Virus genome (UHGV): UHGV-0124967
Length of the DNA: 52,734 nt
From: a virus
Reading direction: 5' to 3' (one strand)
The first letter of the stretch is position 1, and the number at the start of each line of letters is the position of its first letter. Below, piece after piece: positions 2,131-52,235 of the stretch. Both the position numbers and the translations under genes were made by a program. Under the pieces are notes generated by a model, which saw nothing but the letters and a program-made list of their open reading frames with translations, was not told the DNA's origin and did not search any database.

Positions 2131-5100
2131 ATGCTGTCGTTGATGTTCTAAATGATCCGGTGCCTCTTGCTACTATCATTGTTGGAGAATACAACGCGGT
2201 ACAATATGCGTATCCTTTAGATGATGATGTTTGAGGACAATATATTTTCCCGATAATATCTGATGCTTCTAAACCAGAAAAAGCGCATTGCACTGTTAAT
2301 GTGCATCCACCATAAGGCACGTAATATGAAATTGTTTTGTTTTTATCTCCGCAACTAAACGTTACGTTATAAATGGATCTATATTCACCAGACATTAATG
2401 AAATAGTCGCCATAAGCATAACTGATTTCGTCAATGCATTATCCGTGCTGTCTTTATATGTGATGGTTGCGCTATAACTTTCGTTATGCCCAAGCACTCG
2501 ATCTGGACCAACCCCCATGTTAGCAACGTCACCGACAAATGACTTTGCCTCTACTGTACCTTTAAACTTCCCGCTTGTGGCCTGAATCTCACCAGTGAAT
2601 TTACCAGATGTTGCGTACACCGTACCGCGTACAGTGACGTTGTTGAACTCCGCATTGCCGTTTTTATTTAGCATCCAGCCATCCGAACCAGCTTTATAGT
2701 TGGTTGACTGAATTTGCTGCGCAATCTTCGCGGTAGTGATTGATGCGTCTCTGATCCACGCATCACGGATGTAGCAAGCACCGTTAGTAACATAGAACGG
2801 GGTCTGATAGGAGCCACCTGCCGCAGTCATAAGCACGAAACTGTCAACGAGGAAAATACACCGCGATTGAACGTTAGTCCCGCTACCAGTAAGGCCGAGC
2901 GACATTCCTGTAGCGTATTTCATACCGTTTTTATCAGTGGCAATCTTAATTGAATATGACGCATCAACGTTACCTTTGAAGTCAGTCAGTGCTTTTGATG
3001 TCGTTTCTATCGCCGTTGTGTTTCCGTTAATAGTTACTTTCAACTGGTCGATTCTGGTTGACAATGCCTCGTCTGCCGTTGCCATAGCCTGTGACCATTC
3101 CGTGATGCTTGAGTTTACATCGTCGAAAGATGCCGAGATCTGGCCAAATTTTTCCGCGCTTGATGTTTCATGCGTAGAAAGTGCAGTTGACACTTCGGAT
3201 ACTTTCGAATTAATCGTACTGGTAAGCGATGAGTTAAGGCTGCTGATTGCGTCAGTGCGTGCATTCTTCTCATCTGCGATCGCTTTATCCATCCTAGTTA
3301 CGTTGCTTGTCACCTTGCTATCGAGCGTGGAAATTGACGCATTAACCCCGCTAATAGCTTCTGCGCGTGTGCTTGATTCGTCAGCGATAGCTTGATCAAG
3401 ACGGCTAACACTGGCATTTGTGTTATTTTCAAGCGTTGTTAAATCAGCTTTAACCTCTGTTATTGCGTCGCTTCTTGCCTGCGTTTCATCTGATATTGCC
3501 TTATCGAGGCGCTTAACACTGGCGTCAGTTTTCTTGTCAAGCGTTGAGATACTTGCGTTCACGTCGCTGATAGCCTGAGTACGCGCACTTGTTTCGTCTG
3601 CAATTGCCCGATCAAGACGGTTTACGCTGGCGTCAGTTTTCTTGTCAAGATTGCTTATTGAGGCATTTACACCGTTAATAGCTTCAGCGCGAGCGCTGGC
3701 CTCGTCAGCTACTGCGCGTTGCACATTAGAGATCTGACCTTTAAGGTTTGTGTCCATCACATTCATTTCTGCCGTGATGGTTTCCAGTGATTCCGCTGTC
3801 GCTTTTTTCTCTTCAGCGATAACGTTGTCAATGCGGTCAATTTCCGCTTTCGTCTCTGTCCTGCCTTTCTTGTACTGAGCGGTAAGAGTTACGCGAGTGT
3901 TAGTCTGTGCAAGCGAGTTATTAATAAGAGCAAGTGAGGCGTTTTGCAGACTTGCTTTTGCTTGCGCCAGTTCGCTGCCAACTTTTTCGCTAGACACCTC
4001 CAGCGAGTCGATTCTCGACTCATGCTGTCCAATATCATCGGAGTTTTCCTTAACTATTTTATAAAGATCTTCCGTTTCTTTTTTGAGCGTATCAGTATCA
4101 GCTTTTATTGATCCTGTTTCTATGGTTAGGTTGTCAGTAGCAGTTTTAAGGTCATTCGTAGCGCTTTCGATAAGATCAGTGCGGTCGCCTAGATCTTTAA
4201 TGTCACCAACCATTTCTTTAAATTGTTCGGAATTCATTACGTCTTTGGTGACGTAATCGGTAATTTCATCAAAGTTTTCTGTTGGCTTACCTGACGCTTC
4301 CACAAAGTCAGACACACCAAAAGCGTTACGCGCGCGCACATAAACGTAATATGTGTGACCTGTATTCATGCCGCCAAACGTCCACTGATGACCACGCCCG
4401 GTATATTGTGCTTTAGTGGTTATTGATGCCGGATCAGTGATCTGCGTTTCACCTGAGTAATAAAACTCGTAACTGGTATCAGTGGTGAGCATTGTTCTGC
4501 TGATCGGGTAAACTGTAGCCTGGAATACACCGGGAACCCAATTAACGCCAACTGGGGCCGCTGGTGCGCCAATAACCAGATCGACAATGCTTTCCGCACC
4601 CTTCATGCCCGTGTCATTTCTGCCACGAATGCCTAATGAGTAGTTGCCAGCATCAATGCCATAAAAATCATAACTGTAATTCGTGGTTTCGTAGCTTTTA
4701 ACTACAGCGCCTTCGGCGTTATACACGCGAATCTCAAAGGTCAGGCGACGCGTTGTCGTCTGTGTTTCCCATGTTGCGCGACATTGAACCGTTTCAGATC
4801 CAACGTTTAACACCTTCAGATTTTCAATGTTCGGCACGCGGAAGTGATTAAGCGTGTCGTTATTGATCTCGAAGATTGCGCCATTATCGACTTCGGCCTG
4901 CTTATGTGGATCATGCTGTGCGGCCTCGATGGTGTATACGCTGTTATTTTCTGTTTCTGCTACACTGGTGATTCGACATAAAACGGGTTTTGCTGCGTTG
5001 GTTGATACAGCAAAAACAGTGCCGTTACGAATCCACGCCGGGGCGGCTGCAAGGGTGATAATGTTCCCGTTAACTCCGATGATCTGGTGTTTTTTAAATT

Positions 5101-34754: not shown

Positions 34755-35516
34755 TCAGTCCGGTAAAACGCGGTTGAGCGTAGTACGATTGATGGCCCGG
34801 TCGTTAGCCAGGAATACAGCACGGGCAAAGCCACGCGGCGTTAGTGAGCGGATCATCTTAGTGCGTTTCGACTTTCCTCCTAACTTAGCGTGCTGCTTAC
34901 TGTCTTCCCATTCATCAGGCATTGGCACAGGCAGGAATAGCGGCTGATTAAATCCATTCCCGCACCAGATACAAGTTTTCTTCGTGTATGCGTCGCGGTC
35001 GGCGATGTATTCCGGGAAGGCAGGATGTTTGTCATCTTCAGGCAGGTAGCCACCGTAAGCGCACGGGTTGAAGATAAAATCCGGCTTACGCCATAACGTT
35101 GACAGCGCACCTACCGGATTTTCCACCATCCACGGGACGTGGTACATATCAGCAAGCGTTTCTACCAGTTTTGCGTTGTATGCCGCCTTCTGCTGGAAGT
35201 AAGGTTCTTTTTTCCGCTTATCAGCAAACCAGCGAGCGCCGGACACCGCAAGATCGTCGCACGGAGGAAAGCCCAGGATAATGTCAGGATCTGGATAAAC
35301 AGACAATTCAGGGGAGAACATTACCAGGAAATGGCTGTCAATCCATACGTTGATATACTCAATGTTCGGATGAATGATTTTTGACGCCTTCATAATCGCC
35401 GTGATTAGCGCCATCATAGTTGAAGCAATAGCATTTATAACCAGCGTCGGCCCAATCTTTAACGGCGTATCCGCTGCCGTCGTACAGCGACCACACCACC
35501 CAATTTCTAAGTCCAC
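34755..35516 (-). CDS. DNA cytosine-5 methyltransferase-like protein (short, atypical N-terminus)
   Basis: PDPDIILGFPPCDDLAVSG resembles motif IV and WMVENPVG motif VI; no clean motif I, so may be truncated or frameshifted. Confidence 0.5.
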   Translation of the reverse strand: MDLEIGWCGRCTTAADTPLKIGPTLVINAIASTMMALITAIMKASKIIHPNIEYINVWIDSHFLVMFSPELSVYPDPDIILGFPPCDDLAVSGARWFADKRKKEPYFQQKAAYNAKLVETLADMYHVPWMVENPVGALSTLWRKPDFIFNPCAYGGYLPEDDKHPAFPEYIADRDAYTKKTCIWCGNGFNQPLFLPVPMPDEWEDSKQHAKLGGKSKRTKMIRSLTPRGFARAVFLANDRAINRTTLNRVLPD

Positions 35517-36019
35517 TCTTTCCTACCCTCGAACGTAAAGTAGCGGCGCATGATGATAGTGATCACCGTTACCGCCGCCATTTTTGAGATGAATTGCATA
35601 GCTGATATTTCCGGCATGAATGCCATAAACGATAGCGTTGGGAAAATTAACGCATCGCCAATGGCGGACGCTATATTTGCAGGCCAGCGTTTAGAATCGA
35701 AATCACCAGGTAAAACCCGGTAAACGCCGCCAGAAATAAGCGCACCGGAAACAACCGCGACGAATGACGCGATCGCCACCATTCCGGCGTCGTAATTTAT
35801 CAGCACCGTGATTGCGCCAGCGGCGGCGCATGTTGTAGCCGACCATTTAAGGCCGCCGTCATATAACAGAAAATCACGAATCATCATATTGACACACACT
35901 GCGGCTACCGTGGTGATCGGAATTACCCACGGGCCACAGTGGTTAACAATAAGATTGATGATCACGAAAACGGCGACATAAACGCAGGCTAATAACCTGT
36001 CAATTGTCACCCTTTTCAT
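35507..36019 (-). CDS. multi-pass inner membrane protein, 170 aa
   Basis: ATG 36019 with AAGAGGT RBS (track ORF starts at TTG 36061); several hydrophobic helices. Confidence 0.5.
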   Translation of the reverse strand: MKRVTIDRLLACVYVAVFVIINLIVNHCGPWVIPITTVAAVCVNMMIRDFLLYDGGLKWSATTCAAAGAITVLINYDAGMVAIASFVAVVSGALISGGVYRVLPGDFDSKRWPANIASAIGDALIFPTLSFMAFMPEISAMQFISKMAAVTVITIIMRRYFTFEGRKEWT

Positions 36020-45145: not shown

Positions 45146-45646
45146 ATGCGCAAGTTAACACACGAAGAACACATCACAGATATAGCCAAAGTTAACACTT
45201 ATGTTGAAGTATTGGGAAAAATTAAGAACCATAGAGATAAAGTCCCGTGCCGCTGCAAGATCTGTAGTCATGAGTGGTCTGCCAGGCCTTGCAACCTTAA
45301 AAGCGGGTACGGCTGTCCAAAATGCGCGAAATACGGTTTCCTTCGTCATGAGTATGGCAAACTTTACATCATGGTTGATGATCTGGAAGTGCCTACACAA
45401 ATGAAAATTGGGGTAAGTGTTCAGGAAAATAAACGAAGAAACGAGATATTAAAAAGCGCACATAAAGCAGGCGTTAGAATTCCTAATTTGCATATCGTGA
45501 AAACGTTAGAAGGGCCAACCGAAAATATACATGAACTAGAAAACACGATGCATAAGGCTTTTAGCAATTATAAAATTAACTTTCCTGTAAAATTTGATGG
45601 TAGCAATGAGTTTTTTATTACAGGCCGGAAGTATTCGACATGGTAG
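45146..45646 (+). CDS. zinc-ribbon plus T5orf172-like (GIY-YIG-like) domain protein
   Basis: 166 aa; AAGGAG RBS; CRCKICSHEW...CPKCAKYG, then KLYIMVDD...MKIGVSVQENKRRNEIL...NEFF. Confidence 0.55.
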   Translation: MRKLTHEEHITDIAKVNTYVEVLGKIKNHRDKVPCRCKICSHEWSARPCNLKSGYGCPKCAKYGFLRHEYGKLYIMVDDLEVPTQMKIGVSVQENKRRNEILKSAHKAGVRIPNLHIVKTLEGPTENIHELENTMHKAFSNYKINFPVKFDGSNEFFITGRKYSTW

Positions 45647-49092: not shown

Positions 49093-49218
49093 ATGGATAA
49101 GGAATTAGATTTAACAGTTGAAGACCTGAGCACGATTGCGGAATACATGCGCGACGATGATCCTGATCGTCCTGTCGTCGTTGATATGAAAAAACTAAAA
49201 AAACGACCATATGGCTAG
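49093..49218 (+). CDS. hypothetical acidic protein, 41 aa
   Basis: ATG 49093 with GAGGTGG RBS; below track cutoff. Confidence 0.35.
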   Translation: MDKELDLTVEDLSTIAEYMRDDDPDRPVVVDMKKLKKRPYG

Positions 49219-49910: not shown

Positions 49911-50573
49911 ATGAGTGAATCAAGAGTAATTGGCATAATTCGTCATCGCACTAACCCTGATGTTTACCCATCGTTTGAGGTAACAACATGCCGCACGGAA
50001 TACAATTTTGGATCATGCTATTTAGTTGGCGTCCGCGCTGATACTCGCGGCACTTATTCAGTTATGGCGGCAAGCTGGAAATTTGATAAATACGCTAATT
50101 TATCTAACAAGGATGATGACGGCATGAATAAAGAAAGTGAAATTATTGATGGATTAATCGAAGATGAACGCCGTGACTGCGAAACACAACAAGAAAAAAC
50201 GGAATGGGTCGTAGGTGATAAGCCTCCTGTTAATGTGTGGCTTGATTGCGTAGGTTTGACAAGTGGAACTATTCTTGATGTCGTCAGGTTTAAATATGTT
50301 GGTGATAAATGGGCTATATGTGAAAGCAAGGAAGATTTTTGTGGCGAGAGGCCGCTATCATGGACAACATGCTCTTTCAAGCTGCATATAGATCCGAAAG
50401 AAAAGGCACTTGCTGAAATCGCGCTTGCACTTGCTGTCAATGTTATGGGTGAAGACGCGGCAAAAGAGATTGACTTTAACCACGACAATGATTTTTCGTG
50501 CGATTATCGCAATATGGCGCAAGCTATTATTGATGGATGTATCGGACACGTTGAATACACGGGGGATAAATAA
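49911..50573 (+). CDS. hypothetical protein, 220 aa
   Basis: ATG 49911 with GAGGAT RBS (track ORF from 49896); Cys-containing, acidic. Confidence 0.5.
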   Translation: MSESRVIGIIRHRTNPDVYPSFEVTTCRTEYNFGSCYLVGVRADTRGTYSVMAASWKFDKYANLSNKDDDGMNKESEIIDGLIEDERRDCETQQEKTEWVVGDKPPVNVWLDCVGLTSGTILDVVRFKYVGDKWAICESKEDFCGERPLSWTTCSFKLHIDPKEKALAEIALALAVNVMGEDAAKEIDFNHDNDFSCDYRNMAQAIIDGCIGHVEYTGDK

Positions 50574-50803
50574 TGGATAAAACCGGGACAATCCTTCTTA
50601 GTCGCCCTGCCATCTGCCGGATGCTTGGGGGAATTAGCAGGGGAACGTTTTACTTATGGCGTAAAAAATGGGAACGGAACGGAACTCCGTTCCCCGACCC
50701 GGTTGACGTACTTGGGACCGGGCGTGGCGTTATGTACCGCTATCAGGACGTAATGCAGTTCTTTGATCGGATTGGTTTAACGTCAGCCAAAGATAACACA
50801 TAA
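50573..50803 (+). CDS. AlpA-family HTH regulator / putative excisionase
   Basis: 76 aa; LGGISRGTFYLWRKKWERNGTPFPDPVDVLGTGRGVMYRYQDVMQFF pattern; convergent with integrase 3' end. Confidence 0.65.
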   Translation: MDKTGTILLSRPAICRMLGGISRGTFYLWRKKWERNGTPFPDPVDVLGTGRGVMYRYQDVMQFFDRIGLTSAKDNT

Positions 50804-51958
50804 TCAGCAAACTTATTTAGTGCCTCCTTTTGTTCATCAAGATAATCATATTTGTCGTACACCGCCAGTATTCCCCTTAATGAATGGCCTAAGATCTTTT
50901 CTGCAATATGTACCGGAACACCTATAGCTGAAAGGTGTGTCCGGCACGTCCTGCGGAGGTCGTGACAGGACCATGATTTACCGCCCATCCTTTTACGCAC
51001 GAATATTGCAGCTACTTTTATCACTGATACGTTTACTGGCCTGTTGCCGCCGTTAATCACTGGCGGGAATACATAATCATACTCATGGGAGGTTAAAACC
51101 TCCCTGAGCATTTTTATCGACAAGTCAGATAATCCCCGCCTGATTTCACTTCTTGTCTTCGCCACCGCCGCCGGAACGGTCCATACACCGTTGTCCAGAT
51201 CTAGGTGTTCCCTTCTCATTTTCTGCAATTCACCAACCCTGCACCCGGTTAGCAATAATAGCTTTAAGGCTATTTTGTTCTGCGGATAGATCTGCGAACT
51301 GTCTACCGTGCGCCAGAAGTGGCCTATCTCCTCACATGAAAGGTAACGCTCCCCCCACCGCATAATGCTCGCCAACGTCAGCTACACGGATATTGTTTAT
51401 CGCCGTGTTAGTCATTAGCCCACGCCTGATTGCGCTGTTAACGATGATTTTCATTCGCTTCAATATCAAACCAGCCGTAACCGCGTGACCCGCCGCAGTG
51501 ATCTCGCCAAATATATCCATCCACTGTTTTGTCGTTACGTCGTCAGCTATGTAGTCGCCGTACTTGTTGACTACGTGGCGCATCAATGCGCTTTTGACTT
51601 CTTTATATGCCACCAGCTTAATGACGTTCGGCAGGGATAGATAGTCTTCCACTACGTCGGATATAGATCGCTTGCCCTGCTCAAAGGCTATGGCCTGCTT
51701 TACGCACAGTGCCGGATTCTTCCCTTTCGTAAGCAACTCCCTGTATTCAGACACCGCATAGCGGGCGTCTTTCAGACTCATTTTCCCGTATTCACCGATC
51801 TTCATTCGCACTGGCTTACCGTTGAATCTGTAACGGTACTGGAAAGTAATTTTCCCTTTTGGGTTTATCCTGGCTGACAGGCCATCACGATCAGCTATCT
51901 CGCTTGGACCGTCGTATGGCTTGTTGGCGATGGCCCTTAACCTGGTATCCGTAAGCAT
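50743..51958 (-). pseudogene. tyrosine integrase disrupted by a frameshift
   Basis: Two overlapping frames (51332..51958 N-terminal, 50743..51375 C-terminal with HDLRR, LGHS, AVYDKYDY motifs). They meet at a C6 run (51351-51356); deleting one base would give continuous ...GEHYAVGERYLSCEEIGHFW.... Could be a real pseudogene or a sequencing error. Confidence 0.7.
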
Positions 51959-51972
51959 GTTGCCCCCCCATT

Positions 51973-52235
51973 TTTGGTCACGTTTTGGTACACAGTTTTT
52001 GTTGTACGGATATTAACAGTATTGTACGGAATTAGAAACGTGATGCCGGGTTTTGGTTACAACTTTATGATTTTTAAGTGATTTTATTGACGTGATTGAA
52101 CGGAGTTAAACGCCTTTAAACATAGTGCGCTGGTCCTGTCTGGAATGATTAGTGTAACGAATAATCATTTATAAAACATAATGTTATGTTGTTTTTGATT
52201 TTAGTTTTTGATATTTGGTCACTATTTGGTACACA
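51973..52235. repeat. two copies of a ~22-bp direct repeat flanking an AT-rich region; candidate integrase arm sites / att region
   Basis: TTTGGTCACGTTTTGGTACACA (51975-51996) and TTTGGTCACTATTTGGTACACA (52214-52235); each is itself a tandem of TTTGGT(C/A)AC. Confidence 0.35.

Follow-up and report, generated by a model that had tools for sequence, protein, structure and literature searches.

A frameshifted type Ia integrase gene in a circular mEpimmI-type coliphage genome from a human gut metagenome

One tyrosine integrase in two reading frames

The DNA analysed here, a stretch of 52,734 nucleotides that we call the window, carries an integrase gene (int) whose reading frame is interrupted within a run of six C residues, read on the plus strand as ...AACGCT-CCCCCC-ACCGC... 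(C6; Table 1). The upstream fragment, ORF-N, comprises the arm-binding domain and the core-binding region; it continues out of frame after Gly199, the last in-frame glycine, for the six residues GALPFM up to a TGA stop at 51334-51332, and its C-terminus reads ...GEHYAVGGALPFM followed by that stop. The downstream fragment, ORF-C, lies in the +1 frame and counts 206 aa from the ATG at 51363, or 210 aa from the TTG at 51375 that the ORF lister took as its start. Gene callers give the identical 208-aa product in metagenome contigs, together with a 206-aa call that has a Phage_integrase match.

Table 1. Positions in the window of the features discussed in the text
Feature	Position	Strand	Evidence or remark
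76-aa helix-turn-helix protein	50573..50803	+	HTH_23; phrog_4745 (DNA-binding protein)
Integrase C-terminal fragment (ORF-C), catalytic domain	50743..51363	minus	ORF list, PF00589, phrog_1
C6 homopolymer	51351-51356		G6 in mRNA: GUG GGG GGA; +1 insertion site; C5 in relatives
Integrase N-terminal fragment (ORF-N), 208 aa	51958..51332	minus	ORF list, translation, PF13356, phrog_1
S32N, arm-binding domain of int	codon 32, 51863..51865	minus	AAC (Asn) vs AGC (Ser) in relatives
G7 run (C7 on + strand)	51963..51969	minus	four bases upstream of int ATG; putative ribosome-binding site
attP core GTCCTGTCTGGA, 12 bp	52133-52144		junction of int arm and other prophage end
DNA (cytosine) methyltransferase gene, broken	35516..34755 (region 34755-35520)	minus	two private indels

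The two fragments match consecutive stretches of the phrog_1 integrase profile (positions 92-253 and 268-455), ORF-C alone with an E value of 2e-43. When one C was deleted from the tract in silico, a continuous 404-aa protein was obtained, joined as ...GEHYAVG-ERYLSCEEIGHFW..., with Pfam matches to Arm-DNA-bind_3 (PF13356; residues 2-84, all within ORF-N, E 7e-20) and to Phage_integrase (PF00589; residues 207-367, E 1e-20, 74.5 bits for a gathering cut-off of 27.1 bits). Read by eye from the translation, the catalytic R-K-H-R-H-Y set is present in ORF-C (TGCRVGEL, AKTR, HDLRRT, GHS and the Y in AVYDKY), and the catalytic residues of the repaired protein are those of an intact homologue, P0003. 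ORF-N and ORF-C correspond to the two parts of a single tyrosine integrase and are no chance pair of ORFs. A sequence-only reading of the window had described an integrase split at the C6 tract into two overlapping frames, which the ORFs, the Pfam matches and the phrog_1 profile bear out, and had predicted that removal of one base would restore a continuous protein, which it does with exactly the join that had been written down. Integrases of this family carry their DNA-binding and catalytic domains on one polypeptide; here the frame is broken at the G6/C6 run, and the gene as written is a pseudogene of its family.

At the level of domains only, the repaired protein resembles the CP4/P4-like integrases, with which it has the PF13356 plus PF00589 architecture in common: its residues 2-77 align to the solved N-domain of these proteins (DUF4102-type arm domain; PDB 3jtz, 3rmp and 3ju0; E 8e-8), there being no solved structure of the window integrase itself. 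Alignment to lambda Int pairs residues 135-261 of the query with chain residues 113-231 and, taken with the Pfam boundaries, would put the break close to the linker that connects the core-binding domain with the catalytic one. A two-piece integrase, in which ORF-C is translated on its own from the ATG at 51363, is unlikely: its Shine-Dalgarno match (GGCGAG) is poor, and translational coupling is lacking since ORF-N stops downstream of that ATG. The isolated catalytic domain of lambda Int does not recombine, which by analogy also counts against a two-piece enzyme.

The gene for the small helix-turn-helix protein is convergent with int, the 3' ends of the two genes overlapping tail-to-tail by 61 bp (50743-50803). 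RefSeq annotates a homologue of this protein as a helix-turn-helix transcriptional regulator, and we consider it a candidate excisionase or directionality factor. On the other side of int, a second, non-coding G/C run is, judging from its position, probably the ribosome-binding site; it has seven bases in the window and 5, 6, 6, 6, 6, 6, 7 and 9 in relatives. The length of this run could modulate int translation, or its variation could partly reflect homopolymer errors in the other assemblies.

A circular genome of the mEpimmI group

The homology of the int arm to prophages ends at window position 52144, where dgcM comes next in chromosomes. From 52133 on, the window presents the opposite prophage end (the tail/head-fibre arm), beside a head-spike-fibre gene and with no dgcM. 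The core sequence at this junction occurs once in the window by string search, and a three-junction alignment finds it in attP and also at each end of the LP-26-E1-261 prophage, where this joins the chromosome; attL of this prophage reads MITHNFNTLDLLTSPVW, the start of DgcM. The att site lies in dgcM (ydaM), at codons 14-18, and a tRNA scan of the window for a tRNA-type att site returned no tRNAs. Since the int arm joins the other prophage end at the core, the window carries attP. Its two ends (1/52734) are contiguous in contig L004, which was assembled independently, and both the window and L004 read straight through attP, host DNA being absent at either arm. The window is therefore the entire genome of a circular phage in linearised form, derived from a human gut metagenome, and no segment of a chromosome.

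The phage belongs to a type that has already been described. The mEpimmI group consists of Nus-dependent non-lambdoid coliphages, with mEp021 as archetype, in which integrases of types Ia and Ib have as their target the 5' region of ydaM, the gene at present named dgcM (PMC11893012). The window int is 90.8-99.2% identical in DNA sequence to those of FAH, M1/5, MS 21-1, PAR, KKa019 and Ecol_244, which are listed as type Ia in Table 2 of that study (PMC11893012), and the att core is shared with the 5' part of ydaM/dgcM. Genome architecture, integrase family and the ydaM/dgcM target are thus common to the window and the type Ia phages, whereas mEp021 is only about 83% identical in the int region. 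The published description gives integrase genes in all members of the group and mentions no frameshift (PMC11893012), in contrast to the window, in which int is both split and altered by S32N. As a change, C6 is of an ordinary kind, probably a routine loss-of-function mutation.

The six-base tract in relatives, in other assemblies and beside other lesions

The int module (50573-52144, 1.57 kb) is 99.2-99.7% identical at the DNA level to prophages in E. coli M15, LP-26-E1-261 and FAH, in all three of which RefSeq gives the integrase as intact, with 404 aa in M15 and LP-26-E1-261. FAH is annotated with a shorter integrase of 396 aa that ends ...LADVKPI. A base-by-base comparison showed C5 in these three prophages, and a pattern scan open to any run length showed C5 in six IMG/VR contigs and three metagenome contigs, so that comparison with intact homologues, which the sequence-only reading had put forward as a check, gives five bases in 12 of the 12 close relatives examined. 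The repaired protein is identical at 403 of 404 positions to P0003, a 404-aa E. coli prophage integrase recorded on 490 contigs. Together, the invariant C5 and this near-identity indicate that C6, a +1 insertion, is both derived and private, within a gene otherwise almost the same as the common intact allele. Two further searches gave nothing closer: a scan of the genome contig collection for the tract at run lengths of 3-9 returned no match of any length, and in the phage record collection the closest entries were mEp021 and mEp515 at 83%, none being near.

By tblastn, every IMG/VR or metagenome contig that covers the gene has one open integrase frame, with a single exception. This exception (OBUX01000065.1) is a prophage from another metagenome, host junctions present, in which a 20-bp tandem duplication, AACGTATCAGTGATAAAAGT, at about position 5031 (equivalent to about 51034 in the window) frameshifts the catalytic domain. 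Inactivation of int is therefore recurrent in this group, this contig being an independent case.

No more than 4-6 contigs on record, in ENA, JGI/IMG and Logan assemblies, encode the exact 208-aa and 206-aa fragments. Two of these contigs were read, a 52,748-bp scaffold from SAMN00715136 and a 52,811-bp MEGAHIT-style contig from SRR341586; they come from different assemblers and are both 100% identical to the window through the C6 site. These two contigs, L004 and L005, are assemblies of the window's sample, and both have C6. PRJNA422434 is the T2D gut cohort of Qin et al., and the two contigs almost certainly come from one of its samples. All C6 carriers probably derive from one human gut sample, SAMN00715136 and SRR341586 presumably designating the same one. 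The agreement between assemblers rules out an assembler artefact and is compatible with a systematic read error. The reads of the T2D cohort are presumably Illumina data, and Illumina consensus indel errors are rare at six-base runs.

Other private lesions accompany C6 in this genome. In int itself, the window has T at 51864 where relatives have C, and the resulting S32N substitution replaces a serine that each of the 27 full-length homologues read retains, even those of only about 88% identity. The DNA (cytosine) methyltransferase gene, intact with 254 aa in 5 of 5 relatives examined, is broken by two lesions, a 1-bp deletion at 35518 that removes the ATG and lies outside any homopolymer, and a +1 insertion in the A/T run at 35374-35378; what is left is a 46-aa ORF with motif I (LYDGSGY) and a 253-aa ORF with motif IV (GFPPCDD). 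A search of IMG/VR for both methyltransferase lesions gave 0 matches.

When the window was compared over its full length with the closest prophage, LP-26-E1-261, mosaicism (84-96% identity) prevented a clean count of indels, and the frameshift census was made at the protein level instead, with ORFs from two related prophages. Most of the flagged pairs were antisense or intergenic artefacts, and the only clear recent breaks were those in int and in the methyltransferase gene. Two other changes of frame were noted. At 49093-49218 a 41-aa ORF takes the place of a 65-aa gene that overlaps ninB in relatives, with A-rich runs at 49189-49210, and at 45146-45646 the final residues of a 166-aa gene depart from the frame of a 303-aa zinc-ribbon protein, with an indel at 45615; the alleles compared are 75-79% identical, a distance at which neither change can be called recent. 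Mosaicism is strong in general, the int module being 99+% identical to relatives and the adjoining modules 84-96%.

These data bear directly on whether C6 is genuine. Were it a sequencing or assembly error, the true tract would be C5, the integrase would be intact and the window would represent a normal temperate phage induced and excised in the gut, an explanation that we regard as unlikely while giving it some weight. It fits a single-base difference in a homopolymer, confined to assemblies of apparently one sample where every relative has C5, and an attP-form circle is the expected product of an Int-proficient induced prophage. However, C6 is given by at least two different assemblers and by JGI and Logan records; the cohort is presumably one of Illumina data, with the low rate of consensus indels just mentioned; and the genome has another three private lesions, all in non-essential genes and one of them away from any homopolymer. 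These further lesions point to real mutational change rather than to homopolymer miscalling. The four private lesions, in two genes dispensable for lytic growth, look like the product of relaxed selection and not like random miscalls. A simple sequencing error, as the sequence-only reading had suggested among other possibilities, keeps a modest probability; the multiple C6 assemblies and the other private lesions disfavour it.

Possible consequences of the broken frame

We consider it probable that C6 is a real, recent mutation that inactivates the type Ia integrase of a temperate coliphage of the mEpimmI group. Replication slippage would have converted C5 to C6, a classic Streisinger +1 insertion, breaking int; translation would then end six codons after Gly199, and the arm/core-binding half and the catalytic half would no longer share one polypeptide. 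Separated domains of lambda Int do not perform arm-dependent recombination. By analogy, Int activity should be lost in the window phage, which should be able neither to integrate into nor to excise from the dgcM (ydaM) attB. At 215 aa, the CI-like repressor has the full length found in relatives, and the combination of a circular attP genome with an intact CI-like repressor makes an integration-defective free phage the most likely state. Such a phage would have been present in one human gut sample as DNA that was free or replicating, presumably maintained by lytic propagation, and would form only abortive lysogens.

The closest functional parallel may be the int-minus mutants of lambda, which keep the repressor, grow lytically, form no stable lysogens and cannot excise once integrated; the window phage is expected to behave alike. 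The lambda strains are laboratory mutants with an integrase of another lineage, whereas the window holds a natural allele from a gut metagenome, with a phenotype deduced from its genes.

There is a tension in this account: a free attP genome arises most simply by Int-mediated excision, for which a working Int is needed. Because excision needs Int, the attP form would be better explained by a C5 majority, or by a mixture of C5 and C6, in the population. On a further, more speculative reading, the genome may be that of a temperate phage caught in the process of turning obligately lytic in the human gut.

A prophage locked in the chromosome, which the sequence-only reading had also envisaged, is contradicted by the circular genome and its attP junction; the flanking attL and attR host DNA that would mark such a prophage is absent from the window. 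For a locked or grounded prophage to be the source nevertheless, the circle would have to come from tandem prophage copies or from a helper integrase acting in trans, and we hold this to be very unlikely. Integrated prophages with a dead integrase do exist among the relatives, as the 20-bp duplication in OBUX01000065.1 and its host junction illustrate, and resident prophages typically show decay of accessory genes, the methyltransferase gene being one of this kind. Grounded or cryptic prophages indeed resemble the window in having loss-of-function lesions in int and in accessory genes, but the window is in the attP form without flanking host DNA, and L004 likewise reads through attP with arms free of host sequence. 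Moreover, the C6 carriers of known size (L004, L005 and the longest recorded) are all of 52.7-52.8 kb, close to the length expected for the phage genome alone.

Phase variation had been another proposal of the sequence-only reading. It would imply a reversible switch of the tract between C5 (on) and C6 (off) and hence a population alternating between lysogeny-competent and lytic-only phages. The lesion does sit in a mononucleotide run, and relatives do differ in the length (5-9) of the second G/C run, the one shortly before the int start codon. The int tract itself, by contrast, is constant at C5 throughout the relatives and just six bases long in the window; hundreds of contigs encode the full-length protein; and the assemblies show no heterogeneity within the sample. 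A contingency tract would be expected to vary in length among relatives or within the population, neither of which is seen here, and runs of 5-6 bases are below the length of known contingency tracts. The proposal finds no support in this comparison, and we give a reversible switch almost no credence. None of the three meanings put forward by the sequence-only reading has positive support.

Recoding of the two frames into one product would take either a +1 ribosomal shift on G GGG GGA, with the P-site tRNA-Gly re-pairing from GGG to GGG, or slippage of RNA polymerase on G6. A +1 slip at the GGG codon would give the exact wild-type protein, ...AVGERY..., and the zero-frame stop lies just six codons downstream. 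A programmed frameshift should leave a two-frame layout conserved in homologues, but the split arrangement occurs in none of them, all being single ORFs of 396-404 aa, which refutes a programmed, conserved recoding site. We know of no stimulatory frameshift signal at the int C6 site, G6 is shorter than the tracts that give efficient transcriptional slippage, and any read-through would be at background level; recoding is exceedingly improbable. Equally hard to credit is a C6 allele that is leaky and not null, with low-level wild-type Int made by a +1 slip on G GGG GGA. Were this the case, the window would represent a natural variant with "down-tuned lysogeny", integrating and excising at low frequency, and the excised attP form would be explained.

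In annotations, the proper label for the gene is frameshifted integrase pseudogene of an mEpimmI type Ia phage, and a score of lysogeny-competent should be given to the genome only after a check of the reads, a point of relevance to pipelines that predict lifestyle from a mere integrase match. If the mutation is real, it provides a small natural case in which a temperate coliphage of the gut has lost both integration and a methyltransferase while still being present as free DNA, and it bears on how frequently temperate phages drift to a lytic-only life in vivo. The one mildly notable aspect is that a temperate phage probably unable to integrate was assembled from gut material as free DNA; the finding has little import beyond annotation.

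On the host side, lysogeny at the attP core splits dgcM, leaving the promoter and codons 1-17 on one side and the remainder of the gene on the other. The product of dgcM is a curli-regulating diguanylate cyclase, and RefSeq annotates a 393-aa DgcM at the prophage junctions of L002 and L007.
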